Shown in pieces: positions 1 to 61,257 of a DNA stretch of 64,000 nucleotides. The translations under genes were made by a program, and so were the position numbers. Under the pieces are notes generated by a model. That model searched no databases. It was given only the letters and a program-made list of their open reading frames with translations, and was not told where the DNA came from. The stretch spans positions 93,537 through 157,536 of the forward strand of contig JAHJTG010000016.1 of NCBI GenBank assembly GCA_018829965.1. Direction: 5' to 3'. Position 1 is the first letter of the stretch. Each line of letters opens with the position of its first letter. This stretch comes from Patescibacteria group bacterium. GTDB taxonomy: Bacteria; Patescibacteriota; Minisyncoccia; Minisyncoccales; Staskawiczbacteraceae.

Positions 1-2004
1 CCAGAAAGAATTTCAATGCCTGATATTGATTTGGATTTTACTGACCGACGCAGAAATGAGGTTATAAATTATATCGGCCAGAAATATGGCAAAGACCATG
101 TTGCTCAAATTATTACATTTGGAACTATGGCCGCCAGAGCTGTTATTAGAGATGTCGGCAGAGCATTAGCTATCCCCTATAGTTATTGCGACAGAATAGC
201 AAAAATGATTCCCTTTGGTATGTCTTTAAAAGAGGCGCTTGATGGCGTAAGCGAATTTAAAGAACTTTATGAAAGCGATGCTGAAGCAAAAAGATTAATT
301 GATTTGGCAAAAAATCTTGAAGGAGTTGCCCGCCACGCTTCAACTCATGCCTGCGGTGTTGTTATTTCTGAAAAACCTTTAACCGATTACGTCCCTTTGC
401 AACATCCGACTCAAGATGACGAAACTATTGTTACTCAATATGAAATGCATGCCATTGAAGATTTAGGACTTTTAAAAATGGACTTATTGGGTTTGAAAAA
501 TTTAACTATTATTGAAGATTGTTTAGCGCGTATTTATCAGATTTATGGCAAATCAATTCAAGTTGATAACATTCCCGCAGACGATGAAAAAACCTACAAA
601 CTTTTTCAAGAAGCGAACACAATAGGTATTTTCCAATTAGAATCATCAGGAATGCAAAATTATTTAAAACAATTAAAACCAACTAGTTTTGATGATATTG
701 TGGCAATGGTTGCTCTATATAGACCGGGACCGATGCAATTTATTCCTGATTTTATCAAAGGAAAACATAAAAAGAAAAAAATAGAATATTTGCATCCTAA
801 ATTACAACCTATTTTAGAAAGCACCTACGGCATTTGCGTTTACCAAGAACAATTAATGCAGATCGCCCAGCATTTAGCCGGATTTTCTTTATCCGAAGCC
901 GATGTTTTAAGGAAAGCAATCGGGAAAAAAATAAATGATCTACTCCAAGCTCAAGAACAAAAGTTTATTTCTGGCTGTATCAAAAATGAAGTGCCTAAAA
1001 AAACCGCTCAAGAACTTTGGCAATGGATTTTACCTTTTGCCTCTTATGGATTTAATAAAAGTCACAGCGTGGGTTACGCCACGATTGCCTGCCAGACAGC
1101 TTATTTGAAAGCTCATTACCCTGTTGAATTTATGGCAGCTCTTTTAACTTCTGAAAAATCAGACATTGAAAGAATCGCTGTCCTAATAAAAGAATGCCAA
1201 AAAATGGGAATCCCTGTTTTACCGCCAGACGTTAACGAAAGCTTTAGAAATTTTTCTGTAATTCCAAATGAAAATAAAATACGTTTTGGATTGCTGGCGA
1301 TAAAAAATGTCGGCGAAAATATAGTTGAAGCAATTTTAGCAGAAAGAAAAGCCAAAGGAAATTTTAAATCAATGTATGATTTTATTTCCCGAATACAATC
1401 CAAAACCTTAAACAAGAAATCGTTTGAAAGTTTGATAAAAACCGGAGTTTTTGATAAATTAGAGGATAGGAGCAAGCTTTTATACAATATGGAGGATATA
1501 TTGGAAGCTAATCGGGAAATCAAGCAAAACATGAATAATAACCAAACAAGTCTCTTTGCAAATTCCTCTTCATATAATCCCTCTGTATTAAGATTGAAAG
1601 AAGCTCAAAATATATCTCTAAACGACCAACTAAATTGGGAAAAAGAACTTCTAGGCCTTTACATCTCTGCCCACCCTTTAGATAGCTTTAAATCTGTTTT
1701 AGAAAAAAACTCTTATCCCCTATCAAGGCTAGACAATGACGTAGTCGGCAAGCTGGTAAAAATCGGCGGGGTGATATCAACAATCAAGAGGATTATAACA
1801 AGGAACGGAAAGCCGATGCTTTTTATGAGCCTTGAAGATTTAACGAATAAGGTTGAGGTAGTTGTTTTCCCAACAGTTATTGATAGAAATCCCACTGTTC
1901 TTCAAGAAAATAAAATCGTGTTTGTAAAAGGCAAAGTTGACAACAGAGATGGCGAGATAAAAGTTATCGCAGATGAAATAGAAGAAATTATAAACACGGA
2001 TTAA
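1..2004 (+). CDS. dnaE: DNA polymerase III alpha subunit, C-terminal ~660 aa (gene starts upstream of the window)
   Basis: Frame is open to the window edge. Motifs LLKMDLLGLKNL, YRPGPMQFIP, GFNKSHSVGYA and a C-terminal OB-fold-like region. Confidence 0.9.
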   Translation, partial: PERISMPDIDLDFTDRRRNEVINYIGQKYGKDHVAQIITFGTMAARAVIRDVGRALAIPYSYCDRIAKMIPFGMSLKEALDGVSEFKELYESDAEAKRLIDLAKNLEGVARHASTHACGVVISEKPLTDYVPLQHPTQDDETIVTQYEMHAIEDLGLLKMDLLGLKNLTIIEDCLARIYQIYGKSIQVDNIPADDEKTYKLFQEANTIGIFQLESSGMQNYLKQLKPTSFDDIVAMVALYRPGPMQFIPDFIKGKHKKKKIEYLHPKLQPILESTYGICVYQEQLMQIAQHLAGFSLSEADVLRKAIGKKINDLLQAQEQKFISGCIKNEVPKKTAQELWQWILPFASYGFNKSHSVGYATIACQTAYLKAHYPVEFMAALLTSEKSDIERIAVLIKECQKMGIPVLPPDVNESFRNFSVIPNENKIRFGLLAIKNVGENIVEAILAERKAKGNFKSMYDFISRIQSKTLNKKSFESLIKTGVFDKLEDRSKLLYNMEDILEANREIKQNMNNNQTSLFANSSSYNPSVLRLKEAQNISLNDQLNWEKELLGLYISAHPLDSFKSVLEKNSYPLSRLDNDVVGKLVKIGGVISTIKRIITRNGKPMLFMSLEDLTNKVEVVVFPTVIDRNPTVLQENKIVFVKGKVDNRDGEIKVIADEIEEIINTD

Positions 2005-2078: not shown

Positions 2079-3809
2079 ATGAACATAGAAACAATTCGTC
2101 ATTCATTGGCTCATATTATGGCTTATGCCATTCAAGAACTTTATCCGAAAACAAAATTCGGAATCGGCCCGGCAGTAGAAAACGGGTTTTATTACGATAT
2201 TGAAACTCAAAAACCGATAAGGCCAGAGGAATTGTCAAAGATTGAGGAAAAAATGAAAGAGCTAATTAAACAAGACATCAAGTTCAAGAAAAAACTAACC
2301 AATAAAGCCCAAGCGAAAAAGATATTTAAGAGCCAGCCGTATAAGCTGGAGCTTATCAAGGAACTCAAAGAAAAGAATGCCACTATCTACGAATCAGGCG
2401 ATTTCATTGATTTGTGTAAAGGACCGCATATAAAGTCTGGTAAGGAGATAACTCCTGATGCTTTTAAATTAACAAGGATTGCCGGAGCTTATTGGAAAGG
2501 CAGCGAAAAGAATAAAATGCTGACCCGCATTTACGGATTGGCTTTTGCTTCTAAAAGAGAATTGATTGATTATTTAAACAACCTTGCTGAGGCAGAAAAG
2601 AGAGACCATAGGATTATCGGGCAAAAATTAGACTTATTTGTTTTTTCTGATTTAGTTGGACCAGGCCTTCCTCTTTTTACATTCAAAGGCGCCACCATTT
2701 TAAAAGAGATAAAAGATTATTGCAACGAACTTCAAAATGAAATCGGCTACCAGGAAGTACAAACTCCCAACATGAATAGAGCCGAACTCTTTAAAATTTC
2801 TGGCCATTATGAAAAATTCAAAGACGACATGTTTAAAGTTGTTTCACATTATACAGAAGAAGACTATTATCTAAAACCGATGAACTGCCCTCAACATACG
2901 CAGATATATGCTTCGAAACCAAGAAGCTATAAAGACCTGCCTATAAGAATTGCTGATTTTGCCCAACTTTATAGAGACGAAAAAACAGGGGAACTTTCTG
3001 GCCTTACGCGTCTGCGTGGATTTGCCCAGGATGACGGCCATTCCTTTTGCAAAGAAGATCAGATAAAAGATGAGTTTAAGTCTGTACTTTCTGTTATTGA
3101 GAAAGCAATGAAAACTTACGGGATGAATTATAAGATAAGATTTTCACTATGGGATCCGAAACATCCCGAAAAATATTTGGGCGATACTAAAATTTGGAAA
3201 AAATCGCAACAAATGCTTGAAGAAATCTTAATTGAAAACAAAATTGAATATTTCAGAGCAATCGGAGAAGCAGCTATGTACGGCCCGAAAATGGATTTAA
3301 TATCAAAAGATTCTTTAGGAAGAGAATGGCAGATATCAACTATCCAATTAGATTTCATTATGCCTCAGAGGTTCGGCTTAAAATATGTTGACTCTGACGG
3401 AAAAGATAAAACTCCGGTCATGATACACCGGGCAATAGTCGGCTCTCCGGAAAGATTCTTCGGCATTCTGATTGAACATTACGCGGGCAGTTTTCCTGTT
3501 TGGCTTTCCCCTATTCAAGCTTGGGTTGTGCCAGTGGGAGATAATCACAAAAAATATGCCAAAGAAATTTGCGAGAAATTATTAAATGAAAAAATAAGAG
3601 CGGAGATAAAAGACGACAATAATACTATTTCAAAAAAGATTAGAGAGGGGGAAATACAAAAAATCCCTTATCTTTTAATTGTTGGTGATAAAGAAATTAA
3701 ATCAGGTTCCGTAGCAGTAAGGGAAAGAAAGAAAGGAGATGTCGGTATGATAAAATTTGCTCAATTTATTGAACAAATTAAAAAAGAAATAGAGACCAAG
3801 AAATCCTAA
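2079..3809 (+). CDS. thrS: Threonine--tRNA ligase lacking the N-terminal TGS domain
   Basis: 576 aa. Starts at editing-domain motif RHSLAHIMA. Class II core YRDEKTGELSGLTRLRGFAQDDGH, HRAIVGSPERF, and a C-terminal anticodon-binding domain. Confidence 0.95.
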   Translation: MNIETIRHSLAHIMAYAIQELYPKTKFGIGPAVENGFYYDIETQKPIRPEELSKIEEKMKELIKQDIKFKKKLTNKAQAKKIFKSQPYKLELIKELKEKNATIYESGDFIDLCKGPHIKSGKEITPDAFKLTRIAGAYWKGSEKNKMLTRIYGLAFASKRELIDYLNNLAEAEKRDHRIIGQKLDLFVFSDLVGPGLPLFTFKGATILKEIKDYCNELQNEIGYQEVQTPNMNRAELFKISGHYEKFKDDMFKVVSHYTEEDYYLKPMNCPQHTQIYASKPRSYKDLPIRIADFAQLYRDEKTGELSGLTRLRGFAQDDGHSFCKEDQIKDEFKSVLSVIEKAMKTYGMNYKIRFSLWDPKHPEKYLGDTKIWKKSQQMLEEILIENKIEYFRAIGEAAMYGPKMDLISKDSLGREWQISTIQLDFIMPQRFGLKYVDSDGKDKTPVMIHRAIVGSPERFFGILIEHYAGSFPVWLSPIQAWVVPVGDNHKKYAKEICEKLLNEKIRAEIKDDNNTISKKIREGEIQKIPYLLIVGDKEIKSGSVAVRERKKGDVGMIKFAQFIEQIKKEIETKKS

Positions 3810-3998
3810 ATCCCAAACCCTAAACTCTAAATAAGCCCAAATTCCAAAACCCCAAATCCAAAAGTGTTTATAATTATAAGCGAGGATGGAAAAGAAAAAT
3901 TTATTTTTATTTTTCAACCGAGCGAAATAATTATGTGGCAACGCCACAATAATTTAGATATTTGGATTTTGAATTTGTTTAGAATTTAGAGTTTAAAA
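3801..3998. repeat. Composite intergenic palindrome: AAATCCY heptamer arm, AGCGAGG...CCGAGCGA core element (3871-3952), TTTAGRR heptamer arm
   Basis: Read directly: aaatcctaaatcccaaaccctaaactctaaat (3801-3863), then tttagatatttggattttgaatttgtttagaatttagagttt (3953-3998) in inverted orientation. Confidence 0.7.
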
Positions 3999-7564: not shown

Positions 7565-8938
7565 ATGACACAAAAATATTACATAATAACTTTCGGCTGC
7601 CAGATGAATGTATCGGATTCGGAAAGAATCGCAGCGGTTTTAGAATCTATAAAATACAAACCTGTTCAGAAAATAGAACCTGCTGATTTGGTTGTAGTAA
7701 ATATGTGTTCTGTGAGACAATCAGCCGTTGACCGAGTTTTTGGTTTAAACCAAAAACTCGTCAAACTCAAAAACCACAACCCACAACTCACAACTATATT
7801 AACTGGCTGTGTTCTAAAAAAAGATGAGAAAAAATTATCCAGATTTTTTGATTACATTATCAATATTAAAGATATTGGAAAACTGCCTAAAATTTTAAGA
7901 AACAAAAATGAGGGAAAAAAAGATTACCTTAGAATAAAACCAGCGCACGTTAATAAATTTTCTGCAATAGTGCCGATTATGACTGGATGTAATAATTTTT
8001 GCGCCTACTGCGTTGTCCCATACACTCGTGGAAAGGAAGTTTCAAGGCCGGCCAAAGATATTATCTGCGAGATTAAAAACTTAATTAAGCGCGGATACAA
8101 AGAAATCTGGCTGATGGGACAAAACGTGAACTCTTACGGAGTTCAACGCGAAACTGATGCGAAACAAAACGCGAAACTGATGCGAAACAAAATAAACTTT
8201 CCTAAATTATTAAAGATGGTAAATAATATTCCAGGAAACTTTTGGATAAGGTTTACCTCTTCCCATCCTAAACCCAGCACTAGGGCAAAGCTCAGTGCTG
8301 GACTAGTCCCGTACCGAAACAAAGTTTCTGGTACGGGGGATTTTTCTTGGAATGAATTAATCAATATTATAGCTAAAGGAGAGAAAATCACCCCCTACCT
8401 TAATCTTCCGGTCCAAGCTGGTGACGATAAGGTTCTGAAAAGAATGAATAGGCCTTATACAATAAAACAATATATAAATATCATTAAGAAAGTCGGAAAG
8501 AAAATTCCTGATATTTGTCTTTCAACAGATATAATTGTCGGCTTCCCCGGAGAAACAAAAAAACAATTTCAGAATAGTGTTAAATTGTTTAAAGAGATAA
8601 ATTACGACATGGCATATATCTCAGAATATTCTCCAAGACCAAAAACAATGTCCGCTAAAATGAAAGACGATATTTCCATAGAAGAAAAATCTGAAAGAAA
8701 AAGAATTCTAAATAATATCTTAAAAGAAACTGCGTTGGGAAAAAACAAACGATACGTCAATAAAGTTGTAGAAGTTTTACCAATGGAATATAAGAACGGA
8801 CTCTTATTTGGTAAATCTTGGCACTATAAAACAGTGAAGTTTAAAGGGAATAAAAACCTGATCGGAAAATTCGTTAAAGTAAAAATTACTAACGCTTTGC
8901 CTTGGATACTGGAAGGAAAAATAGAATATAGAATTTAG
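7565..8938 (+). CDS. miaB: tRNA-i6A37 methylthiotransferase MiaB (radical SAM)
   Basis: N-terminal UPF0004 domain (YIITFGCQMN), CNNFCAYC radical-SAM cluster, C-terminal TRAM domain. Carries two internal repeat insertions. Confidence 0.9.
   Translation: MTQKYYIITFGCQMNVSDSERIAAVLESIKYKPVQKIEPADLVVVNMCSVRQSAVDRVFGLNQKLVKLKNHNPQLTTILTGCVLKKDEKKLSRFFDYIINIKDIGKLPKILRNKNEGKKDYLRIKPAHVNKFSAIVPIMTGCNNFCAYCVVPYTRGKEVSRPAKDIICEIKNLIKRGYKEIWLMGQNVNSYGVQRETDAKQNAKLMRNKINFPKLLKMVNNIPGNFWIRFTSSHPKPSTRAKLSAGLVPYRNKVSGTGDFSWNELINIIAKGEKITPYLNLPVQAGDDKVLKRMNRPYTIKQYINIIKKVGKKIPDICLSTDIIVGFPGETKKQFQNSVKLFKEINYDMAYISEYSPRPKTMSAKMKDDISIEEKSERKRILNNILKETALGKNKRYVNKVVEVLPMEYKNGLLFGKSWHYKTVKFKGNKNLIGKFVKVKITNALPWILEGKIEYRI
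8273..8338 (+). repeat. 66-nt twin-hairpin insertion, in frame inside miaB
   Basis: ccagcact...agtgctgg and cccgtacc(gaaac aaa gtttc)ggtacggg. Splits the conserved SSHPK|DF motif and is translated PSTRAKLSAGLVPYRNKVSGTG. Confidence 0.7.
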
Positions 8939-8970
8939 GATTTAGGATTTAGAATTTAGAATAAAAAATC

Positions 8971-10367: not shown

Positions 10368-10403
10368 AAAAACCAGTGCAGAATTTTTTGCTCTGGTTTT
10401 TTT
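10368..10403. terminator. Bidirectional terminator between convergent genes
   Basis: aaaaaccag...ctggttttttt stem flanked by an A-run and a T-run. Lies between the 10345 stop and the gatB stop. Confidence 0.7.
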
Positions 10404-11925
10404 ATTTGAGAATATTTTTCAACAATTTTTGAACCATTTCGGGATTAGCTTTGCCTCGGGTTTCTGCTATAACCTTTCCTGCTAAAAACTGCAAAGCATT
10501 CTGTTTTCCTTTTTTAAAGTCGTCTACTGCACTTTGGTTTTTTTCGATTACACTTTTAATCGCTTTTTCAATTTCTTTTTCGTCGCTAATCTGACTTAAG
10601 CCTTTTTCTTCAATAATCTGTGAAGGATCTTTACCAGTTTGCAACATTTGCACTAAAACTTCTTTCGCTGTTTTGCTAGTTATTTTTCCGTCGTTTATAA
10701 GAATTATAAATTCAGAGAAGTCTTCCGGAGTTATCGCGCATTCTTTCTCTGAAAATTGTTCTCCTAATAAGCCTTGTAGGTCTGTAATGATATAATTACT
10801 AGCTAATTTAATTAAAGACTGTTTTTTATCTTTTTTTGCCTCTGTTTCAATCTCGCTGATAACTTTTTCAAAATATTCTCCTAGGTCTTTGTTATCGGTA
10901 AAGATTTCTATAGATTTTGCATCCAAGTCATACTCTTTTTCAAATCTTTTTCTCTTATTCGCCGGCAATTCTGGGATTTCAGCCTGAACGCTGTTTATAA
11001 GTTGTGAGTCCAATATGATAGGTGGTATATCTGGCTCTGGAAAATACCTATAATCATGCGCTTCTTCCTTCTCCCTCTGACTGAATGTCTCCTCTTTGTT
11101 GTCATCCCAGCCACGTGTTTCCTGAATTACTTTTTTCCCGTCGTCTAAAACCTCTGTTTGCCTTTTAATTTCGTAATTAACTGCCTTCTCCGCCGCTTTA
11201 AAAGAGTTTAAATTCTTTATTTCCACCTTTGTCCCGAGTTTAGGATTTTGGACTTTCGATTTTGAATTTGTTTCGGATTTAGAATTTAGGATTTCGGATT
11301 TGAGTGGAAGTAAGCTTATGTTTACTTCGACTCTTAGTTGTCCTTTTTCCATATCAGCATCGGAAACCTCCAGATATCTTAAAATTAATTGCAGCTCCTC
11401 GGCAAAACGTCGTACTTCTAATCCTGATTTCAAATCAGGCTCTGTTACTAGTTCCATTAAGGGCATGCCTGCTCGATTATAATCAACTAAAGAATAGTCC
11501 ACGCCTTTTGGATGTAAAAGACGACCAGTATCTTCTTCTAGGTGTATCCTCGTAATTCTAATTTTCTTTAAATATAACTCTGAAAAATCTTGAGATACTG
11601 GTATTTCTAAAAAGCCTTTTTCACAAAACGGTTTATCATATTGAGAAATCTGATAACCTTTTGGCAAATCTGGATAGAAATAGTTTTTCCTATCAAACTT
11701 TGACTCTTCATTAATCTTGCAGTTTAAAGCTAATCCTGTTTTTACAACTTTTTTTATTGCTTCTTCATTAGCAACCGGAAGCGTCCCCGGGTGCGCCATA
11801 CAAATCGGGCAAATATTAAAATTCGGCTTTTTCTCATCCGGATCGTTCTTACAAGAACAAAACATTTTAGAGTTAGTTTTCAACTCCACGTGTATTTCTA
11901 ATCCTATTGTTGTTTTGTAATTCAT
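10402..11925 (-). CDS. gatB: Asp/Glu-tRNA(Asn/Gln) amidotransferase subunit B
   Basis: MNYKTTIGLEIHVEL, CPICMAHPGTLP, C-terminal GatB/YqeY domain. Contains a heptamer-array insertion at 11239-11301. Confidence 0.93.
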   Translation of the reverse strand: MNYKTTIGLEIHVELKTNSKMFCSCKNDPDEKKPNFNICPICMAHPGTLPVANEEAIKKVVKTGLALNCKINEESKFDRKNYFYPDLPKGYQISQYDKPFCEKGFLEIPVSQDFSELYLKKIRITRIHLEEDTGRLLHPKGVDYSLVDYNRAGMPLMELVTEPDLKSGLEVRRFAEELQLILRYLEVSDADMEKGQLRVEVNISLLPLKSEILNSKSETNSKSKVQNPKLGTKVEIKNLNSFKAAEKAVNYEIKRQTEVLDDGKKVIQETRGWDDNKEETFSQREKEEAHDYRYFPEPDIPPIILDSQLINSVQAEIPELPANKRKRFEKEYDLDAKSIEIFTDNKDLGEYFEKVISEIETEAKKDKKQSLIKLASNYIITDLQGLLGEQFSEKECAITPEDFSEFIILINDGKITSKTAKEVLVQMLQTGKDPSQIIEEKGLSQISDEKEIEKAIKSVIEKNQSAVDDFKKGKQNALQFLAGKVIAETRGKANPEMVQKLLKNILK

Positions 11926-15841: not shown

Positions 15842-15908
15842 AGTTTAGGTTTTAGGTGTTAGGGTTTAGGGTCTAGTTAATTATACGCTAAACGCTATAC
15901 CTTATACG

Positions 15909-17017: not shown

Positions 17018-17149
17018 AAACTCTAAATTCTAAGCTCTAAACTCTAAACAATATCAAAACTCTAAATTCAAATAATTAAAACGTTTTTAGATTTTGAATA
17101 TTTAATATTTGGATTTATTTAGGATTTAGGATTTGGGATTTAGGATTTT
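17018..17149. repeat. Arm-inverted heptamer arrays (CTCTAAA-type arm, then TTTAGGA-type arm) forming a ~130-bp imperfect palindrome
   Basis: Left arm 17018-17074, right arm 17084-17149. Fills the secE-nusG spacer. Confidence 0.7.
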
Positions 17150-18139: not shown

Positions 18140-20779
18140 TTATATATCTAAGTTCTTTACCGTCTTTGCATGAGTCTGGATAAATTTCTTTCTTGGCTCT
18201 ACCTCTTCGCCCATTAAAATATCAAAAATTTTATCTGCCTCTCTGGCGGTATCAATTGTAACCCTTAATAATAATCTATTTTGAGGATTCATTGTTGTCT
18301 CCCAAAGCTGTATTGAATCCATTTCTCCCAAACCTTTATATCGTTGGATAGAAATACTTTGATTTTTATTAACTGTTTTCAAAAGCTTCTCTTTTTGTTC
18401 GTCGTTATAGACATGCTTTATTTCTCTGCCAATCTGTATTTTATAAAGCGGTGGCTGAGCGATATAAATATATCCAGCGTCAACCAATGGTCTGAAGTGA
18501 CGATAGAAAAGAGTTAAAAGTAATGTCCTAATATGGGCGCCATCAACATCAGCATCAGTCATAATAATAACTCTATGATATCTTAGTTTTTCTATATTAA
18601 AATCTTCGCCAATCGCTGTCCCTAGAGCAATAACCAAAGCTCTTATCTCTTTTGAATCCAACATTTTGTCCAAACGAGCCCTTTCCACATTTAGAATCTT
18701 GCCTCGTAAAGGTAAAATCGCTTGAAAATGCCGGTCTCTTGCTTGTTTTGCGCTATTATGAACAAAAACCCCCGATGCCAATGCAAAGTTATGAGTATTC
18801 TTAACTTCTAAATCATAAACATCTACCCTTTCTTTCAATTTAACTATTCTTTTAATTTTATGGTTATAGCTTGAAACTGTTTGTTCTAATACTCTTTCTT
18901 TTCTAAAACATTCTTTATGAAAAGGCATTAAAGAATCTTCTGTTTTTAAGTCTTTTGCCATTTTGTAATTTCCGCCCCTCAACATAAACTTGTGATCTGG
19001 CGTACAAATCATCTCTTCGTCATTATCTAAAACAACTTTAATAACTTCTGCGTTTTCTTTTGTTTTTCTTGGATTATCAATTGGCTCGATTCCAACACTA
19101 CCGTCATTTTTAATTGTATAACAATAATTCTTCTTTCCTTGTTTATGTTCTTCAACCAAATTTTCAAAAGATAAGTTTCTTCCATCAGCTAAAGCAACTT
19201 CAGTTTTTCCAAACCAACAACCACCGGCACTCTCTCCTTCGACGATATACAATTCTGATTCTTCTGGTTTTCTTGAAAGACAATCTGCAAGTTTTCCAGG
19301 CAACGCTAATCCTTCTAATACTCCTTTTCTTAAAACTGTCTGACGAGCGCTTTTTGCCGCTTGCCTGGCTTTTGCCGCCAATAAACAGTTTTCAACAATT
19401 CCTTTAGCATCTGATGGGTAACGTTCTAAATAATCGCTTAAACCTTCTGCCACAGCTGTCTCTACGGCGTTTTTGGCTTCTGGGTTTCCTAATTTTGCTT
19501 TTGTCTGGCCCTCAAATTGAGGATTCCTTATTTTTACAGAAATTACTGAAGTTAATCCTTCTCTTACGTCTTCACCTGAAAGATTTTCATCTTTTTCTTT
19601 TAAGTATCCTTCCCTTCTAGCATAATCATTTAATGACCTCGTTAAAGCCGCCCTAAAACCAGTTAAATGAGTGCCTCCTTCTGGAGTATAGATATTATTG
19701 GCAAAACTTTCTTCAATGCATTCCATCTCTTGGGTATATTGAAAAGCTGCTTCAACTGCGATTTCGTTTTTTGTAGTAGCTATGCTGAAAACATTAGGAT
19801 TTCTTGGTGTATTCCCAGTAGTTAAATATTTTACGTAAGAAGCCACTCCCCCTTCAAAATAAAAGGCGTAGCTAAATTTCTCTTTAGAATTTCTTTCATC
19901 TGAAAAAGAAATCCTAACCCCCTTAGTAAGATAAGCCTGTTGGCGTAAATGATTTAGAATCTTCTTAGAATCAAATTTTATCTCTTTAAAAATATCTGGA
20001 TCTGCTTGGAAAGTAACAGTGGTTCCTGTCTTTCTGCAAGCTCCTATTTTTTTAACCGGAGACTTTACATCACCCTTAGCATATTCCTGCATATACAAAC
20101 CGCCATCTCTGCAAACTTCTGCTCTCATTTGAATAGACAATGCGCAAACAACAGAAACGCCGACACCATGCAAGCCTCCAGATACCTGATATGCTTTACT
20201 ACCAAATTTACCACCAGCATGTAAAACCGTCATTACAGTTTCTAATGCTGATTTTTTAGTTTGAGAATGTTTTTCTACTGGAATGCCTCTGCCATCATCA
20301 GAGACTTTAACCAAATTGTCTTGCAAAAGAGAAACCTCTATATTTTTACAATGACCAGCCATCGCTTCATCCAAGCTATTATCAATAACCTCCCAAATTA
20401 AATGATGAAGACCATCCAAACCAGTTGAGCCAATATACATTGCTGGTCTTTTTCTTACCGCCTCAAGACCTTTTAAAACATAAATATCTTTAGCTGTGTA
20501 TTCGTCCTTTCCTGTTTTTTCTTTTAAAGGCTTCTCGTCTCTCACTGTCTCAATAACCTCTTTTTCTACTTTAGTTTGTCTTGTTTTAGTTTTAATAGAT
20601 TCAACCTTAGTCGGTTTAACTTTAGCCACAACAGCTTTCTTGACTATTTTTTCAGCTTTTGGTTTCTTCTTTCCCTCACCTGCAACGCTATGCCAGCCCG
20701 CAGTAGATACAGCGTTTCTGGCGGGCGAAACATTGCGGGCAGGTTCTTTTATCTCTCTTATTTTTATTTTTATAGCCAT
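18140..20779 (-). CDS. gyrB: DNA gyrase subunit B, interrupted by a mini-intein. The long Lys-rich 5' extension is of uncertain translation.
   Basis: VLKGLEAVRKRPAMYIG, GGLHGVG, EGESAGG|intein|SAKQARDR, Toprim and C-terminal motifs. Possible alternative GTG start at 20545. Confidence 0.9.
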   Translation of the reverse strand: MAIKIKIREIKEPARNVSPARNAVSTAGWHSVAGEGKKKPKAEKIVKKAVVAKVKPTKVESIKTKTRQTKVEKEVIETVRDEKPLKEKTGKDEYTAKDIYVLKGLEAVRKRPAMYIGSTGLDGLHHLIWEVIDNSLDEAMAGHCKNIEVSLLQDNLVKVSDDGRGIPVEKHSQTKKSALETVMTVLHAGGKFGSKAYQVSGGLHGVGVSVVCALSIQMRAEVCRDGGLYMQEYAKGDVKSPVKKIGACRKTGTTVTFQADPDIFKEIKFDSKKILNHLRQQAYLTKGVRISFSDERNSKEKFSYAFYFEGGVASYVKYLTTGNTPRNPNVFSIATTKNEIAVEAAFQYTQEMECIEESFANNIYTPEGGTHLTGFRAALTRSLNDYARREGYLKEKDENLSGEDVREGLTSVISVKIRNPQFEGQTKAKLGNPEAKNAVETAVAEGLSDYLERYPSDAKGIVENCLLAAKARQAAKSARQTVLRKGVLEGLALPGKLADCLSRKPEESELYIVEGESAGGCWFGKTEVALADGRNLSFENLVEEHKQGKKNYCYTIKNDGSVGIEPIDNPRKTKENAEVIKVVLDNDEEMICTPDHKFMLRGGNYKMAKDLKTEDSLMPFHKECFRKERVLEQTVSSYNHKIKRIVKLKERVDVYDLEVKNTHNFALASGVFVHNSAKQARDRHFQAILPLRGKILNVERARLDKMLDSKEIRALVIALGTAIGEDFNIEKLRYHRVIIMTDADVDGAHIRTLLLTLFYRHFRPLVDAGYIYIAQPPLYKIQIGREIKHVYNDEQKEKLLKTVNKNQSISIQRYKGLGEMDSIQLWETTMNPQNRLLLRVTIDTAREADKIFDILMGEEVEPRKKFIQTHAKTVKNLDI
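18755..19219 (-). mobile_element. Mini-intein (155 aa, no endonuclease domain) in the GyrB EGDSAGG-SAKQGRD site
   Basis: Starts CWFGKTEV (Cys1), block B TPDH, ends GVFVHN followed by Ser+1. The exteins rejoin to the conserved EGESAGGSAKQARDR. Confidence 0.85.
20676..20742. repeat. GC-rich palindromic element type B (core tgccagcccgcagtagatacagcgtttctggcgggcg)
   Basis: The 37-bp core at 20691-20727 is 35/37 identical to 53807-53843. Outer stem acctgc/gcaggt. Confidence 0.75.
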
Positions 20780-33370: not shown

Positions 33371-33617
33371 ATTCCACCTCTCTTTTATTTATTGTTTGAT
33401 TTTCAAAGCCGAAAAACATTTTCGGCGAACTATTATCAGTCTACAACTTTTATGCCAATCCGTCAAATTTTTGGCGAACAAAAAATCCGCCTATTTATCG
33501 GATTTTTTCATTATTTTATCCTATTTTTTCAAATCCCTTCGGGGTCACGGCGACGGGATGTGAACTTTCTCCTATTTTTGTGAGGCCTTCGGGTCTCTCG
33601 ATACTAAAAGCTTCGTG

Positions 33618-33692
33618 CGCGGGTGACGGGATTTGAACCCGTGATCTGATCCGTGACAGGGATCCGAGGACTCCAGACTCCTCCACACCCGC
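33618..33692 (-). tRNA. tRNA-Asp (GUC)
   Basis: Manual cloverleaf: GCGGGTG/CACCCGC acceptor, GATCC-CTGTCAC-GGATC anticodon arm, ACGGG-TTCAAAT-CCCGT T arm, G73. CCA not encoded. Confidence 0.9.
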
Positions 33693-33759
33693 AGGACTAA
33701 ATATAAAAATAATTAAAGTTTTCGTTTTTTGTTTTAAAAATTGGCATTTTTAATTTCTG

Positions 33760-33831
33760 TGCCGACGGCTGGAATCGGACCAGCGACCTTAGCCTTATGA
33801 AGACTCTGCTCTACCACTGAGCTACGCCGGC
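33760..33831 (-). tRNA. tRNA with CAU anticodon (elongator Met or Ile2-lysidine type)
   Basis: GCCGGCG/CGTCGGC acceptor (one G-U pair), GCTC-AGTGGTA-GAGC D arm, loop TTCATAA, unusual T loop TCCGATT. Confidence 0.8.
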
Positions 33832-35390: not shown

Positions 35391-37319
35391 TTACTGCCTG
35401 CTCTTAAATATCTCCAAGAATGCCCGATGGGAGATTTCAACCCTCCCCTTCTCCTTTAATAGCTTTTTTCCTTTCTTCTGTTTCTCTAAAAGTTTTCTTT
35501 TTCTTGTCACATCTCCTCCGTATAGATAACCGGTGACATCCTTTCTTCTGGCCCTGATTGTTTCACGGGCTAAAACCTTGCCTTGAACTACTGCCTGCAA
35601 AGCAACTGAGAATTGTTCCGGAGGCAAAACATCTTTTAATTTTTCTACCAAAAACTTTCCTTCCCTATATGCTTCGTCTTCGGAAACAATCTTTGAAAAC
35701 GCTTCTTCTGAGTGTCCTGCAATCCAAATTTCCATTTTTACCAAATTACCTGGCCTAAAACCTAAAACCTTATAGTTCATTGAAGCATAACCTTGGCTTA
35801 CGCTTTTTACTTTATCGTAAAGATTGCTAATAATCCCGCGCAAAGGCACTTCATAAATAATAATTGCCCTATCTTGGCCAAAATATTGGGTATCAACATA
35901 GATTCCTCCGGTATTTTTTAAAATATCAGAAAGCTTGCTTATGTAAACACTCGGGGTAATAAGCTCTAAAGACACCCAAGGCTCTTCAGTTTTTTGGATA
36001 AAGGTAGCATCCGGCCAATCCGAAGCTGAATAGATAAATTCTTCTTTGCCCTTTTGATTAAAGATTTTATAAACAACCGATGGCGTTGAAATCACTAGAT
36101 TAAGACCGAATTCTCTTCTTAGTCTTTCAGAAGCAATCTCAACGTGTAAAGTACCTAAAAATCCGCATCTGTATCCTCTGCCTAAAGCTTCTTTTGTTTC
36201 GGGCTCAAATATAAAAGATGGGTCGCTTAACTTTAGTTTTGCCAATGCGTCTTTTAATAAATCAAAGTCGCCAGCATCCTGCGGATAAAAACTGGCAAAA
36301 ACCATTGGTCTTGGTTCTAGATAACCATGCAGGGGTTGGATTTCAGAGGCTTTTAATTTAAACTGCTGGCTTGAAACAATTGTATCGCCGACCCTTACCT
36401 TGCCTGGCTCTTTAATTCCTGTAGCAATATATCCGATTTCACCTGCTGAAATCTTTCCTTGAGCAACAGGTCCTGGCATAAAATATCCTATTTCTTTTAT
36501 CTCTGCTTCAGTATTCGTAACCATCAACCTTACTCTCTCGCCTGCGTTAATTTCACCATCAACAACTCTGATAAAAGCAATGACTCCTTTATAGGCATCA
36601 TAATCTGAATCAAAAATTAAAGCCCTAAAAGGTTTTTGAGTATTTATTTCTGGAACAGGAACTTCTTCAATAATTTTACTTAAAAGAGTATCTACATTAG
36701 CTCCTGTTTTCCCAGAGATTCTAAGAATTTTCTCCGGATCAATGCTTAAAAGATTAGCGATTTCTAAAGCGCTTTCTTCAATTCTGGCATCTGGCGCATC
36801 TATTTTATTCACCACAGGAATTATTACTAAATTTTGTTGTTTAGCCAACTCTAAATTAGCTAATGTCTGGGCTTGAATGCCTTGAGTGGCATCAACCAAT
36901 AAAACTGCTCCTTCAACTGCAGCCAAAGCTCTTGAAACTTCGTAGGAGAAATCAACGTGGCCTGGAGTATCTACCAAGTTCAAAACATATTTTAAACTTG
37001 GAAACTCTAAATTCGAAGCACTAAATTCTAAACTATTGGTTTCGGATTTTGGGTTTTGGGTTTTGGGTTTATTTAGAATTTCGGATTTAGGATTTAGGAT
37101 TTGCGAATGATATATCATTCGTACTGGTTTAAGTTTAATTGTAATCCCCTTTTCTCTTTCTAAGTCCATTCTATCCAAAAACTGCGGTTTCATTTTACCC
37201 GGCTTTACCGCTCCAGTTATTTCTAAAAATCTATCGGCTAAGGTAGATTTCCCATGGTCAATATGGCTAATAATTACAAAATTACGTATATTCTCCTGCA
37301 TATTTATATTTTTTACCAA
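35391..37319 (-). CDS. lepA: Elongation factor 4 (LepA)
   Basis: NFVIISHIDHGKSTL, DTPGHVDF, NKID, LepA C-terminal domain. Contains a ~37-codon heptamer-array insertion. Confidence 0.93.
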   Translation of the reverse strand: MVKNINMQENIRNFVIISHIDHGKSTLADRFLEITGAVKPGKMKPQFLDRMDLEREKGITIKLKPVRMIYHSQILNPKSEILNKPKTQNPKSETNSLEFSASNLEFPSLKYVLNLVDTPGHVDFSYEVSRALAAVEGAVLLVDATQGIQAQTLANLELAKQQNLVIIPVVNKIDAPDARIEESALEIANLLSIDPEKILRISGKTGANVDTLLSKIIEEVPVPEINTQKPFRALIFDSDYDAYKGVIAFIRVVDGEINAGERVRLMVTNTEAEIKEIGYFMPGPVAQGKISAGEIGYIATGIKEPGKVRVGDTIVSSQQFKLKASEIQPLHGYLEPRPMVFASFYPQDAGDFDLLKDALAKLKLSDPSFIFEPETKEALGRGYRCGFLGTLHVEIASERLRREFGLNLVISTPSVVYKIFNQKGKEEFIYSASDWPDATFIQKTEEPWVSLELITPSVYISKLSDILKNTGGIYVDTQYFGQDRAIIIYEVPLRGIISNLYDKVKSVSQGYASMNYKVLGFRPGNLVKMEIWIAGHSEEAFSKIVSEDEAYREGKFLVEKLKDVLPPEQFSVALQAVVQGKVLARETIRARRKDVTGYLYGGDVTRKRKLLEKQKKGKKLLKEKGRVEISHRAFLEIFKSRQ

Positions 37320-37454: not shown

Positions 37455-37919
37455 TTATTCGTCTTCAATGCCATCGGTATATAATTTTTGTCCTCTCTTA
37501 AGGTTTGAATCTGGCATAACGCTCCAAAAAATAATATTGCCATCACCTACCCTTTTCAAAACTACTCTAATTTTAATATTAGAATCGCCAATAATCGCTA
37601 TAAATGTCCAAAACTCTACGTTTTTTGTTTTTTTGAGTCCATCTTTACCCGTCTTACCAATAGGGGCAAATCCCCTCCTAATTTCTTGGAGTGTCCCAGA
37701 ATTTCTAATAACTTTTAAAGCCAGCGGTAAAAGACTGAATTTAAGAATTTGTTCTCTTTTATTTCTTTCTCTCCTCGCAGAAAATTGTAAATGATGAAAT
37801 CCATCGGAATTCAAAACAATATCGCTTTTAAAATAAGGGCTGTAAATCGTTTTTTGGGTGTAATATATAGCCCTTGCTTTTTCCTTTTTTTGATTGAAAT
37901 ACTCAATATTTATATCCAT
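37455..37919 (-). CDS. Hypothetical protein (154 aa)
   Basis: ORF only. No motif recognised. Confidence 0.4.
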   Translation of the reverse strand: MDINIEYFNQKKEKARAIYYTQKTIYSPYFKSDIVLNSDGFHHLQFSARRERNKREQILKFSLLPLALKVIRNSGTLQEIRRGFAPIGKTGKDGLKKTKNVEFWTFIAIIGDSNIKIRVVLKRVGDGNIIFWSVMPDSNLKRGQKLYTDGIEDE

Positions 37920-39607: not shown

Positions 39608-39862
39608 AAGCGAGGTGTTAGCGTTAAAAGTAAATTTCACAGGCTCAATTCCCAATCTGTTGAGCGAGGCGACGAGTTTAAAGATAAATTTCGCAGGCTC
39701 AATTCCCAAACTGTTAAGCGAGGCGACGAGTTTAAAAGTAAATTTCGCAGGCAATTTAGCATGGTTTCGCCGATTGGCGACCGCAACCGACCGCAACACC
39801 GGGTGTTGCGGAGTAAGGGGTTTGGATTATCGCCACTTTTATGGCTACTGCCGAGCGACATT
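39608..39862. repeat. Expanded AGCGAGG...CCGAGCGA element: ~2.6 tandem 54-55-bp units plus a conserved ~110-bp GC-rich module
   Basis: Units start at 39608, 39663 and 39717. The tail gcatggtttcgccgattggcg...ccgcaacaccgggtgttgcgg...attatcgccacttttat...ccgagcgaca is shared with 44618-44826. Confidence 0.7.
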
Positions 39863-41901: not shown

Positions 41902-41904
41902 AAT

Positions 41905-42280
41905 ATCTCAACAAGACTATAAGCCGAATTCTGTTCTATGTGATCATCTGTCTGGACCAAAAATTACTCTTTGGTTCTTGCGAACTACTTTTAACAGAAA
42001 TTCAAGATGAAATTAACCTAAATTTCTGCTTTGTTCTTGCGCCCAGTAAGGATTTAGCCGTTTCATTTCCGTATTACTACGGAATTCGCCCCCCTTCGCA
42101 TAAAGCTACGGAAGGGCGTTTTAATCCTTTCGAATTAAAACGTTTCTGCTCGCACCTCTAACCTCGCGGTCGACGGCTGTTAGCCGCTACTTTTTTAGAG
42201 TCGCCTAAGCGACAATGGGTGTTCGGACTTTCCTCCCTTTATCAATTAAGATAAAGAGCGATCACTCGTCTTGTTGAGAC
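41905..42280 (-). ncRNA. rnpB: RNase P RNA (bacterial type A)
   Basis: P1 TCTCAACAAGAC/GTCTTGTTGAGA. P3 hairpin CTTTATC-TTAATT-GATAAAG. CR-I GGGAGGAAAGTCCGAACACCC. CR-V ACAGAATTCGGCTTATAG. Confidence 0.85.
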
Positions 42281-44508: not shown

Positions 44509-44544
44509 AATAATTTTAATTTTCAATTCCCAATTTTCAATTTT

Positions 44545-44617: not shown

Positions 44618-44826
44618 TGTTAAGTGAGGCAATAATGTATACGGAGCACTTCGCGGAGCCAAGCTAAACTGTTAAGCGAGGTGGTAGTTATAAAAGTGCC
44701 TCTCGCGGGCGATTTTGCATGGCTTCGCCGATTGGCGGCCGCAACACCGGGTGTTGCGGAGTTGGTGTTGCGAAGTGAGGGGTTTGAATTATCGCCACTT
44801 TTATAACTACTACCGAGCGACACTCT
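44618..44826. repeat. Expanded AGCGAGG...CCGAGCGA element with a 15-bp perfect stem enclosing the conserved GC-rich module
   Basis: gtagttataaaagtg (about 44684) pairs with cacttttataactac (about 44796). The cargo contains the ccgcaacaccgggtgttgcgg hairpin. Confidence 0.7.
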
Positions 44827-45887
44827 CATTGTATTAAAGGTTGTAATCCAACAAGCTGTTCCCCTGAAAGAAAACTTAACATTGCGCCTCCTCCGGTTGA
44901 AACATAATCAAACTTTGATGCCAATTTTGTTTTAGTTAAAAATTCAACCGTCTCGCCTCCACCAACTAAAGTGAAACAAAACCATTTTTTAGTAATTGCT
45001 TTGGCAATCGCAAGCGTCCCCTTCGCAAACTCTTCTTCTTCTGTCTGGCCGAGAGGACCATTCCAAAAAATAGTCTTTGCTTTTTTAATTTTTTTCCTAA
45101 AAAGTTTAACCGTCTCCGGGCCAATATCTAATTTTCTTCCGTCCGACTCAATGGCATCAATCGGTACCACTAACTTCTCCTTAAAACTAAACTCTATTCC
45201 CATTTTTTCTATTTCCTGTTTTATCAACTCTCCGATTATAACAACATCTGCAAACTTTAAGATATTTTCGATTAATTTCGTCTTTGTTTCTACTTTCTTA
45301 CCGCCAATAATAGCTAACATTGGCCTCTTTGGTTTTTGCATCACTTTTTCCAATGTCCTTATTTCTTTTTCAAGTAAAAGCCCGACTCCTTTCTCTTTTA
45401 TATATTGCGGCACGCCAACAACCGAGGCGTGAGCTCTATGACAGACGCCGAAAGCATCATTAATATATATCTCTCCCGTTCTTGAAAGAAACGATGCAAA
45501 CTCTTGATTATTTTCAGTTTCTTCTTTATGAAACCTTAGATTTTCCAAAAGAAAAATATCACCGGGATTCAATCCATAAGTGTATTTTTCTATTTCATAC
45601 CCTATACAATCTGGGGCTTTGGTTACAGGACGGCCCAAATGAGCTACAAGATTTTCTTGAACCTTATCCATTGTTAAAGTCGGGACAATCTTGCCGTCCG
45701 GATTCCCCAAATGACTCATTAATATTATTTTTGCCTTTTTTTTAATAAGATATTTAATAGTTGGAAGAATTTTCACAATTCTTGAATCATCTAAAATGTT
45801 CCCTTGTTCATCCAAGGGAACATTAAAATCACATCTGACCAAAACTCTTTTATTTCCGACATTAAGGTCGTAAATTTTCTTAATCAT
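44826..45887 (-). CDS. pgk: Phosphoglycerate kinase
   Basis: RCDFNVPLD, HLGNPDG, GGGETV/STGGGA motifs. Short at 353 aa. Confidence 0.93.
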   Translation of the reverse strand: MIKKIYDLNVGNKRVLVRCDFNVPLDEQGNILDDSRIVKILPTIKYLIKKKAKIILMSHLGNPDGKIVPTLTMDKVQENLVAHLGRPVTKAPDCIGYEIEKYTYGLNPGDIFLLENLRFHKEETENNQEFASFLSRTGEIYINDAFGVCHRAHASVVGVPQYIKEKGVGLLLEKEIRTLEKVMQKPKRPMLAIIGGKKVETKTKLIENILKFADVVIIGELIKQEIEKMGIEFSFKEKLVVPIDAIESDGRKLDIGPETVKLFRKKIKKAKTIFWNGPLGQTEEEEFAKGTLAIAKAITKKWFCFTLVGGGETVEFLTKTKLASKFDYVSTGGGAMLSFLSGEQLVGLQPLIQ

Positions 45888-60306: not shown

Positions 60307-61257
60307 TTACTTAAGGTATTGTATTTCCTCTTTTAATTCTATTCCAAACTTTTCTTTTATTTTTTTCTTAATAATTTTTATTAATTTTACCACATCTTTT
60401 GTTTTCGCTCCACCTAAATTAACAATAAAGTTTGCGTGTTTTTCAGAAATTTTTGCCTTGCCTATCACTTTTCCTTTTAATCCGCACTTATCAATTAAAT
60501 ACGACGTTGGAATTCTACTTCCTTTATTAAATTCGTTAAGTTCTGGAAATTTTTTAAGTAAGTTTTTATTTTTTATTTTTTTAGCATAATTTTTAAAAAC
60601 ACAGCCGGCTGATGGAAAATTCAAAGGATGATTTCGTTTTCTATAGTCGGAGAATCTTTTTATTTCTTTTTGAATTTCTTCTTTATCCCTTTTTTTCAAT
60701 TCTAATATGACGGATAAAATAACAAGGTTTTTTTTCTTTTTAAAAACACTGCTTTTATTACCGAACCTGCATTCTTTATTAGAAAAAGTTTTAATCTTTA
60801 AGGTTTTAATGTCTAAAGCTTTTATACTATGAACGCTATCTGCCATTGAAGACCCAAAGGCTCCAACATTCCCATAAACAGCAGCGCCAACAGTACCCGG
60901 GATACCAACCGCCCATTCTAAGCCGGTTAATTCTTTGTCTGTTGAAGTATTAACTAATTCTCTTAATTTTGTTCCCGCGCCAGCAATAATTTTATTTTTT
61001 TGAAACTTGAAACTTGAAACTTGAAACTTGATTACTAGTCCTTTATACCCTTTATCCGAGACCAGAATATTGCTTCCGCTACCTAAAATAAAAAACGGCA
61101 AATTAAATAATTTTGCCGCTTTTATGGCTTTGATCAAACCTTTTTGATTTTTGGCTCCAAAAAAAAACTTCGCCTGCCCACCAATTTTGAAAGTGGTGTG
61201 CCCAGCCATTAATACATTTTCTTTTATCCCATGTAATATTTTTTTGATGTCTTCCAT
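60307..61257 (-). CDS. murB: UDP-N-acetylenolpyruvoylglucosamine reductase
   Basis: HTTFKIGGQAKFF, ILGSGSNILVSD, AGAG, PSAGCVFKN motifs. Confidence 0.9.
   Translation of the reverse strand: MEDIKKILHGIKENVLMAGHTTFKIGGQAKFFFGAKNQKGLIKAIKAAKLFNLPFFILGSGSNILVSDKGYKGLVIKFQVSSFKFQKNKIIAGAGTKLRELVNTSTDKELTGLEWAVGIPGTVGAAVYGNVGAFGSSMADSVHSIKALDIKTLKIKTFSNKECRFGNKSSVFKKKKNLVILSVILELKKRDKEEIQKEIKRFSDYRKRNHPLNFPSAGCVFKNYAKKIKNKNLLKKFPELNEFNKGSRIPTSYLIDKCGLKGKVIGKAKISEKHANFIVNLGGAKTKDVVKLIKIIKKKIKEKFGIELKEEIQYLK
61001..61031. repeat. Heptanucleotide tandem repeat (TGAAACT) x4.4 inside murB
   Basis: tgaaact tgaaact tgaaact tgaaact tga. Translated KFQVSSFKFQ. Confidence 0.85.

Follow-up and report, generated by a model that had tools for sequence, protein, structure and literature searches.

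The DNA analysed here (the window) is a 64,000 nt stretch of contig JAHJTG010000016.1. It is AT-rich (35% G+C) and comes from an ultra-small member of the Patescibacteria (candidate phyla radiation) that is close to Ca. Staskawiczbacteria. At positions 35391-37319 on its minus strand lies an intact gene for the essential translation factor LepA (EF4), which carries a palindromic array of 7 nt units in frame. The gene spans 642 codons from a TTG start, and the annotated form begins at an ATG six codons in. Its product is 100% identical to the 636 aa NCBI protein ‘translation elongation factor 4 [Patescibacteria group bacterium]’ (P0001) and contains the Pfam domains GTP_EFTU, D2, EFG_III, EFG_C and LepA_C.

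Comparison with orthologs delimits an insert of 40 codons, HSQILNPKSEILNKPKTQNPKSETNSLEFSASNLEFPSLK (HS...LK; 36990-37109, minus strand), between the residues RMIY and YVLNLVDTPGH. An original prediction, made from the sequence, had counted about 37 extra codons at this point, and these are real. Two codons, encoding GG, stand here in P0002, the closest ortholog (85% identical in alignment A2), and typical relatives have six; overall, a loop of 2-6 codons has been replaced. The insert is stop-free and its length is a multiple of three, and the G motifs and domains downstream of it are all intact. Its outermost nucleotides, 6 at one end and 12 at the other, repeat the adjoining LepA sequence in inverted orientation. 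An assembly artefact was rejected because the identical protein was found in several sources and on two contigs, and because equivalent inserts are present in many independent assemblies.

When aligned with solved EF4 structures (5imq/4w2e), LepA residues 67-103 (37 aa) take the place of 4 residues in Thermus EF4. The E. coli LepA structure 3cb4 aligns likewise, from residue 70. AlphaFold2, supplied with 62 homologs, models the protein normally with a mean predicted local distance difference test score (pLDDT) of 76. Residues 69-101 fall below a pLDDT of 50; strands 60-66 and 103-111, which are β2 and β3 of the G domain, enclose them. Both the model and the structure alignment place the insert at a surface-loop position, with the fold left intact. 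In the sequence, the insert is located between switch I and the DTPGH motif; in the structure, its site is predicted to be the tip of the β2-β3 ‘interswitch’ hairpin, which matches residues 70-75 of T. thermophilus EF4. Because the segment lies between these two motifs, it forms a loop within the G domain. The model supports the original prediction of a low-complexity loop, but its placement next to the G domain was not correct. In Ras-like folds, the tip of the β2-β3 hairpin is directed away from the nucleotide.

It is probable, judging from the reading frame, that the insert is translated. Its product is most likely a disordered loop of roughly 38 residues that LepA tolerates, and we read it as a passenger rather than as a functional module. 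Peptides predicted to derive from it include SETNSLEFSASNLEFPSLK and MIYHSQILNPK, the latter spanning the left junction.

Tandem Repeats Finder reports repeats of period 7 and 14 at 37038-37102, which correspond to 7 nt units arranged head to tail. As had been proposed, the array is palindromic: two arms of 31 nt each (37002-37032 and 37072-37102) are 74% complementary. On the sense strand, the C-type arm (37040-37103, minus strand) consists of four AAATCCN units, one AAATAAA, three CCCAAAA units and a final TCCGAAA; it contains the family core AAATCCTAAATCCGAAATTCTAAATAAA and encodes the peptide NPKSEILNK. A short centre, CCAATAG (37033-37039, minus strand), connects this arm to a G/A-type arm, TTTAGAATTTAGTGCTTCGAATTTAGAGTTT (37002-37032, minus strand), which encodes LEFSASNLEF and mirrors the start of the C-type arm. 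The ends of the element are AAATCCTAAATCCGAAAT ... ATTTCGGATTTAGRRTTT.

The same DNA recurs elsewhere in the window. A scan for the core motif AAATCCTAAATCCNAAAT, with no more than three mismatches allowed, gave 22 matches where 1.66 were expected, and none of 100 shuffles reached 22. These matches are spread over six loci, of which four are intergenic, one is in GatB and one is in LepA. A full-length intergenic copy upstream of nusG (17018-17148, minus strand) is 74% identical to the LepA copy over 122 aligned nt, with unit variants in the same order, and the LepA insert of another genome is equally (74%) identical to the LepA copy. A second full-length copy, with a centre of ~85 nt, fills the spacer downstream of the ThrRS gene (3801-3998, plus strand). 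Intergenic copies have a longer, variable centre at the position of CCAATAG in LepA. In the GatB gene (10402-11925, minus strand), a single-arm copy lies in frame at 11239-11305 on the same strand and encodes LPLKSEILNSKSETNSKSKVQNPK. A short array of the same units runs across the stop codon of MiaB and the spacer between MiaB and MiaA (8922-8962, plus strand), and a short related array of GTTTAGG units occupies the spacer downstream of rplK (15843-15876, plus strand). The claim that the LepA insert is made of the material of intergenic spacers is thus upheld.

We aligned, in a common orientation, the LepA insert, the copies at 17018-17148, 3801-3998 and 11239-11305, and the inserts found in LepA genes of three further genomes. 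All are collinear: four AAATCCN units are followed by a phase-shifting AAATAAR, three or four YCCAAAN units, a variable centre and an arm of TTTAGAR units. This second arm terminates in ...GCTT(A/C)GAATTTAGAGTTTC. We are confident that the extra codons of LepA are a copy, in the reading frame of the gene, of an inverted-repeat element that is dispersed in genomes throughout the Patescibacteria and has arms built from 7 nt units in a set order. The intergenic copies show no consistent orientation relative to adjacent genes. A role as terminators was rejected on the inconsistency of their positions and orientations, one copy being located in a divergent promoter region.

The two arms contribute less to mRNA structure than had been predicted. 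On the mRNA strand (36980-37115) they fold with -10.8 kcal/mol (z score -1.0), and 30 of 200 shuffled sequences fold equally well; folded as DNA, they give a z score of -0.3. A ~100 nt hairpin of the two arms was therefore rejected as the main structure of the mRNA. In every copy, mismatches between the arms take the form C.A on the AAATCC (sense) strand but G.U on its complement, so that the latter folds much better (-28.4 kcal/mol, z score -3.1, with G.U pairing only there). Structure on the mRNA strand becomes significant only once the flanks are included (36950-37145, 196 nt): three hairpins then form, with -30.9 kcal/mol (z score -3.35), and the opposite strand reaches -51.8 kcal/mol (z score -4.36). 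Much of the flank-inclusive stability of the mRNA comes from the outer two of its hairpins, which are short and had not been predicted, wherein inserted sequence is paired with LepA's own codons.

Heptamer arrays in LepA, GatB and other proteins

The LepA insert had been treated as a single curiosity, but it is one instance of a recurrent phenomenon that extends across the phylum. A degenerate 27-mer of the first arm (AAYCCTAAATCCGAAAYYMTAAAYAAA, peptide NPKSE[IT]LNK) matched at least 120 metagenome contigs. Among the matches listed, about one quarter of the non-redundant copies are in frame within long open reading frames (ORFs), and the rest are short-ORF copies that presumably are intergenic. 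The in-frame hosts confirmed by Pfam among these matches are LepA and at least 16 other protein families, to which the window adds GatB. The 16 confirmed besides LepA are TopA, TruB, a MocA-type oxidoreductase, a P-type (heavy-metal) ATPase, class V and class III aminotransferases, PGK, MiaB, GT4 and GT2 glycosyltransferases, RadA, a class I aminoacyl-tRNA synthetase, a MetH-like protein, UvrA, UvrC and MnmA.

The frame that specifies NPKSEILNK is the only open one, the other two closing after a median of 6 codons and 1 codon, and the open frame of the element core encodes hydrophilic residues (NPKSEILNK...LEF.S.LEF). Purging of stop codons at the LepA locus itself was also considered, because TTTCGGA had been seen only in coding copies and because TAA and TAG of the 17018 copy correspond to GAA and TCG in those copies. 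This idea was withdrawn since CCG, by which an in-frame TAA is avoided, belongs to the family consensus, short-ORF copies included; an open frame at the level of the family remains. The viral contigs of IMG/VR yielded only perfect (AGGATTT)n arrays at one phage-family locus, with no link to the Patescibacteria element established. The copy number of these phage-family arrays varies from ~8 to 16 units between contigs (L213, L214, L220, L222 and L224).

Among 120 LepA homologs, about one quarter have an insert in the same loop. Eight orthologs that carry either no insert or one of a different family are 79-85% identical to the LepA of the window, whereas the nearest bearer of a same-family insert is 75% identical. 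On a neighbour-joining tree computed with the loop left out, LepA proteins with NPKSEI...LEF-type inserts are scattered, each beside insert-free sequences. At least four unit families occupy the LepA loop, namely AAATCCT, ATTGAAA, TTTCAAG and CCAACAC. The products of the last three are KIENLKLKI for (ATTGAAA)n, KFQVLSSKFQ for (TTTCAAG)n and PTPNTQH for (CCAACAC)n. The NISL-x5-LGTKV loop of GatB is comparable, with inserts of many kinds in ~45% of 120 homologs. Many of the GatB inserts start with Leu-Leu-Pro, which mirrors the codons of Arg-Val-Glu-Val.

The simplest reading of these distributions is that there were many independent gains at the LepA and GatB loops. The repeated hits on the same loop presumably reflect how few positions in essential proteins can accommodate such inserts, and possibly the junction palindrome described below is itself fragile and contributes to them. 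At a second LepA site, G+C-rich, near-perfect palindromes with arms of 16-17 bp lie in frame in two relatives (nt 648-682 of the gene in L088 and nt 595-629 in L090). LepA therefore has more than one loop that tolerates insertion.

Arrays of other unit families occur at three further places in the window, one of which is in the MiaB-like gene described below. A (TTTCAAG)n array in MurB (61000-61031, minus strand) is read as IKFQVSSFKFQ, and an (ATTGAAA)n array is located upstream of a DHH/RecJ-like gene (44512-44544). Both families also form LepA-loop inserts in other Parcubacteria (P0079; P0024/P0063).

Inverted copies of host codons at the junctions

Both joints of the insert with LepA carry inverted copies of host codons. 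At the left junction (37104-37121, minus strand), the host sequence CGA ATG ATA (37113-37121) is followed by its exact reverse complement, TAT CAT TCG (37104-37112), making a palindrome of 9+9 nt with 100% identity. In gene sense, the joint reads CGAATGATA followed by TATCATTCG. The codons for Arg-Met-Ile are thereby mirrored as Tyr-His-Ser, of which the His-Ser codons are new. At the right junction (36974-37001, minus strand), the inserted sequence CCAAGTTTAAAA (36990-37001) is separated by the loop TATG (36986-36989) from the host sequence TTTTGAACTTGG (36974-36985), and 11 of 12 positions pair. Here, the inserted codons for Pro-Ser-Leu-Lys mirror the host codons for Val-Leu-Asn-Leu-Val. The 1929 nt gene contains only two hairpins with at least nine matches and at most one mismatch, and these are at the two joints. 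In contrast, no such hairpin is present at the empty site of the closest LepA ortholog.

Junction hairpins are also found in other insert-bearing LepA genes, whatever the unit family of the insert. Examples include CCAGATTCAGAATA followed by TATTCTGAATCTGG (a perfect 14+14 palindrome), TTCCAAATTCAAAAT-tt-ATTTTGAATTTGGTA, and AGTTTAGAATA followed by TATTCTGAACT. Hairpins with at least ten matches occur just upstream of the DTPGH codons in 6 of 10 LepA genes with an insert versus 1 of 79 without (Fisher p = 2.4e-6). The 79 insert-free genes are from other phyla and were taken from 80 loci of a genome-contig search, in which the best match was 58% identical. Another of the 80 loci (L018) bears a heptamer insert of the Patescibacteria type in LepA together with a perfect 13+13 junction palindrome. 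It resides on a 5.6 kb contig, probably a mis-binned one, from a metagenome-assembled genome labelled ‘uncultured Gammaproteobacteria’.

The inserted copies covary with the host. Across 16 non-redundant insert-bearing LepA genes, T-A or C-G pairs are seen at the first positions of both Leu codons and likewise at the third position of the Asn codon, and the inserted arm also follows a change of host Ile to Thr. On the left, each form of the Arg codon has its reverse complement in the insert: CGT goes with ACG, CGC with GCG, CGG with CCG and CGA with TCG. Lineages differ in the centre of the junction palindrome.

The same signature extends to other hosts. In GatB, the left junction hairpin (11302-11333, minus strand; 11 of 12 paired) comprises the host sequence GAGTCGAAGTAA, a loop and the inverted copy TTACTTCCACTC, after which the array begins; this inverted copy derives from GatB's own RVEV codons. 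Junction hairpins also abut the element in the genes for a P-type ATPase (two orthologs of which differ by a compensatory change), for a class I aminoacyl-tRNA synthetase, for UvrC and for an unnamed protein. Among 101 non-redundant metagenome copies, 20 hairpins were found in the 155 nt upstream of the core, and 15 of these end 4-20 nt before it, where ~2 would be expected. The distance between the inverted copy of the left flank (L′) and the core varies from 4 to 17 nt in the metagenome copies, which show A-rich overlaps at the switch point; the junction thus wanders over one heptamer. In several LepA copies the element is symmetric, in that its start next to L′ is mirrored by its end next to the inverted right flank, R′ (TTCGGATTTAGRRTTT versus AAATCCTAAATCCGAA). 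No direct target duplication was found at LepA, GatB or the other host genes examined, the flank copies being inverted instead.

Coding hairpins are in excess throughout the window: its ORFs contain 22, compared with 10.9 +/- 2.8 in synonymous-codon shuffles. A process that forms palindromes may therefore be general in this genome. One hairpin of 12 bp lies in PGK (45795-45824, minus strand) without any insertion, and both of its arms encode conserved residues (NVPL and QGNI). Another of 12 bp, in GyrB (~19884-19917, minus strand), likewise lacks an insertion, and its arms are heptamer-like units. In a MiaB-like gene (7565-8938, plus strand), a perfect 14+14 palindrome, CGAGTTTTTGGTTT followed by AAACCAAAAACTCG, leads directly into a (CCACAAC)n array (7733-7795). 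The length of the MiaB-like protein looks normal, so at 7733-7795 coding sequence was apparently overwritten and not extended.

Origin of the insert

We tentatively favour template-switch or break-repair copying over cut-and-paste transposition as the origin of the insert, and give this mechanism somewhat less than an even chance. A break or a stalled 3′ end within the loop codons would first copy its own complementary strand, producing the inverted flank copies L′ and R′. The end would then switch, at an A-rich microhomology of 1-3 nt, onto a resident heptamer-array element or its RNA. If both ends switched, the self-complementary copies could anneal to give the order flank-L-L′-C arm-G arm-R′-R-flank that is seen in LepA, and if one end switched a single-arm copy like that in GatB would result. 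The arms at the joints might stay complementary either because the event was recent or through conversion between them. Copying of this kind is preferred to cutting by a transposase because the inverted flank copies are 9-16 nt long and often loop-free, because the junction wanders and shows A-rich overlaps, and because one-arm copies of variable length are frequent and direct duplications are absent. Considered as a whole, an element copy that is translated and that arose by template switching is on balance a probable explanation of the extra codons.

Several points weigh against this account. Strong junction hairpins are present at only 10 of 26 coding copies (~38%) and at 5 of 75 short-ORF copies (~7%). 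The systematic asymmetry of C.A versus G.U mismatches in the arms is unexplained, although RNA-level selection or a mutation bias could be its cause. Perfect palindromes with no loop cannot arise by simple intramolecular fold-back and need strand switching or a closed-hairpin intermediate. Comparison of the 59 ORFs of the window with Pfam revealed no candidate for a polymerase, reverse transcriptase, Ku/LigD or transposase. The copying mechanism is deduced entirely from the scars it would leave, and the symmetric ends of the element are equally expected of a MITE (a miniature transposable element with inverted repeats). Finally, a single old insertion that was then precisely lost many times, together with conversion between arms, would formally also fit the distribution of LepA inserts, the tree being a neighbour-joining one.

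In one relative (L002), a gene for a 389 aa reverse transcriptase of the RVT_1 family (793-1962, plus strand) is located directly upstream of an insert-bearing LepA gene. As a candidate for the copying enzyme it is a possible lead only. A more far-reaching scenario, which we consider doubtful, is that Patescibacteria write DNA into genes without transposition. Specifically, a 3′ end would snap back and then copy a resident G/U-rich hairpin element, possibly as RNA, by means of a reverse transcriptase or repair polymerase. Coding palindromes would actively be kept complementary, new disordered loops would be seeded throughout the phylum, and the open hydrophilic frame of the element would have evolved for survival in such loops.

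The strongest rival, though an unlikely one, is a non-autonomous transposon resembling a MITE or a Rickettsia palindromic element (RPE). Its transposase would be encoded elsewhere, and the junction hairpins would be secondary, created by quasi-palindrome correction or reflecting a preference for hairpin targets. The symmetric termini of the element do resemble terminal inverted repeats, its dispersed copies are many and retain their internal order across genomes whose LepA proteins are only 50-67% identical, and its presence in both spacers and genes is reminiscent of the Rickettsia and Coxiella elements. However, a direct target-site duplication is absent from every copy examined, the ragged end of the element shifts over 4-17 nt with respect to the conserved core, many copies consist of a single arm and vary in length, and the 64 kb window holds no transposase. 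Furthermore, alleles without the insert are also without the hairpin, which therefore was not a pre-existing target.

An old LepA extension that has been inherited vertically, kept for a function of the loop such as contact with the ribosome or a partner and lost in some relatives, is considerably less likely. The pattern LNPKSEI..NK...LEF.S.LEF.DSEY does recur in LepA proteins that are 50-75% identical, always in the same frame. The nearest orthologs, however, have no insert and share a conserved short loop, and DNA of this kind also lies between genes of this genome, besides being in frame in GatB and at least 16 other families. In addition, the loop can be occupied by other unit families, disorder is predicted for the segment and the palindrome centre differs among lineages. 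The original prediction had itself named the finding that would contradict it, an ancient insert conserved in its amino acids but lacking repeat structure in the DNA. What is observed is the reverse: the nearest orthologs are insert-free, and the bearers keep heptamer DNA.

We give slightly less weight still to local birth of the array, which would have grown in place from a short seed by replication slippage, as a microsatellite does. This idea draws on the period-7 tandem structure, on native codons nearby that resemble the units (ILNL in LepA, KNLNS in GatB) and on the MiaB array that directly follows a flank-derived palindrome of similar sequence. Unlinked copies nevertheless have in common the order of variants, the AAATAAA phase shift and the arm end GCTT.GAATTTAGAGTTTC, and a 27 nt core is common to at least 120 contigs, which slippage would not recreate. 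The shared order of unit variants among unlinked copies speaks strongly against slippage growth for this family, and some other heptamer arrays may have been born locally. Least credible is that the segment is not translated, being removed from the mRNA like an intron or bypassed by ribosomes like the ‘byps’ of yeast mitochondria: although hairpins flank it on the mRNA and Patescibacteria are known for intervening sequences in their rRNA genes, it is a stop-free multiple of three in LepA, GatB and at least 16 families while the other frames of the element close within 1-6 codons, Rfam gave no intron or ribozyme match above noise at 36900-37200 (and window-wide only RNase P RNA and two tRNAs), and LepA has no intein domain, with only EF-type Pfam domains on record.

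The window has further features of note. A 154 aa ORF without a Pfam match (37455-37919, minus strand) separates MurJ from LepA. In two relatives (L001 and L091) MurJ directly abuts LepA, and this ORF therefore looks recently arrived. The RNase P RNA (class A) is encoded at 41904-42277 (minus strand), and tRNA-Asp and tRNA-Met at 33617-33692 and 33759-33831 (both minus strand). GyrB (18140-20779, minus strand) holds an intein (Pfam Intein_splicing, residues 529-675) and has an odd apparent N-terminal extension (MAIKIKIREIKEPARNVSPARN...). A 54 nt tandem repeat with 2.4 copies and a 91% match is located at 39623-39752. A G+C-rich 21 nt palindrome, CCGCAACACCgGGTGTTGCGG, occurs twice, 5 kb apart (39791-39811 and 44739-44759), and represents another dispersed repeat family.

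The element has implications for the biology of its hosts. Reduced genomes with scant spacer DNA seem to accommodate a selfish or structural repeat by translating it in loops of core proteins (LepA, GatB, TopA, UvrA/C, aminoacyl-tRNA synthetases), and the element would be a steady source of new disordered segments. To our knowledge, DNA repair in Patescibacteria is almost unknown. The inverted flank copies constitute a readable scar that renders the insertion mechanism testable and that is suggestive of template switching or break repair. In practical terms, the inserts inflate protein lengths and disturb marker-gene alignments and phylogenies, and intergenic copies create spurious ‘hypothetical proteins’; inserts could also serve as strain markers.

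Comparison with known repeat systems

Full-text literature searches returned analogues but no description of such an element in Patescibacteria, which is not proof of absence. Arms of heptamer arrays conserved phylum-wide, insertion time and again into the same loops and covarying inverted flank copies appear to be undescribed traits. The closest functional analogue is the RPE group, reportedly described by Ogata et al. in 2000. The LepA element is at most an analogue of the RPEs and not a member, because its host belongs to another phylum and its sequence appears to be unrelated. Unlike in RPEs, the arms here are ordered arrays of 7 nt units, the family is conserved across a radiation of phylum rank, and the same loop has been hit repeatedly by different families. 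Moreover, the joints carry inverted flank copies that covary with the host, and we know of no description of this feature for RPEs. What the two have in common is that short palindromes are scattered through a reduced genome, in spacers as well as in frame within unrelated and often essential proteins, to which they add a peptide at the surface while function is preserved (PMC10969869, PMC1779305).

Bacterial MITEs (Correia, Nezha and the QMITEs of Coxiella; PMC5896051, PMC3184786) are likewise small, non-coding, multi-copy elements with inverted ends that sometimes are in frame. The LepA element possesses terminal inverted repeats, its 31 nt arms being 74% complementary. It lacks a direct target-site duplication and precise, constant ends (its 3′ extent is variable). 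One-arm copies are also frequent, and no partner transposase was detected among the 59 ORFs of the window.

Near-perfect inverted repeats also occur in the mitochondrial coding sequences of Nematomorpha, where one or both arms consist of conserved codons and gains and losses are scattered (PMC6649704). For these hairworm palindromes, template switching together with conversion that preserves arm identity has been proposed (PMC6649704). The PGK hairpin at 45795-45824 is exactly of this kind and is the sole one with both arms conserved. In hairworms both arms are conserved protein and there is no dispersed element, whereas the LepA joints are short palindromes (9-16 bp) at the edges of an insert, with one arm new (His-Ser; Pro-Ser-Leu-Lys).

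Microhomology-mediated end joining by Pol theta, or by the bacterial G2L4 reverse transcriptase (bioRxiv 10.1101/2022.03.14.484287), similarly yields inverted copies of the break flank and then a template switch at 1-4 nt. Scars of end joining usually measure from a few to ~30 nt and involve no particular repeat family, whereas the filler here is always the resident hairpin element.

The STRR of cyanobacteria and the TAACTGA repeats of Beggiatoaceae, Cyanobacteria and Bacteroidetes (PMC4679880) resemble the element in being abundant, mostly intergenic direct repeats of 7 nt. Their occurrence in coding regions is limited by their own stop codons, and distant genomes share them without a known vehicle (PMC4679880). 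In contrast to these single-unit arrays, the element described here has two complementary arms whose variants follow a fixed order, has one open frame and, to judge from its coding copies, would commonly be translated. The tandem repeats of Borgs (PMC9879509) are local, perfect direct repeats whose genic unit lengths are multiples of three, rather than a dispersed inverted-repeat element. In both cases, repeat DNA repeatedly gives rise to new in-frame disordered segments.

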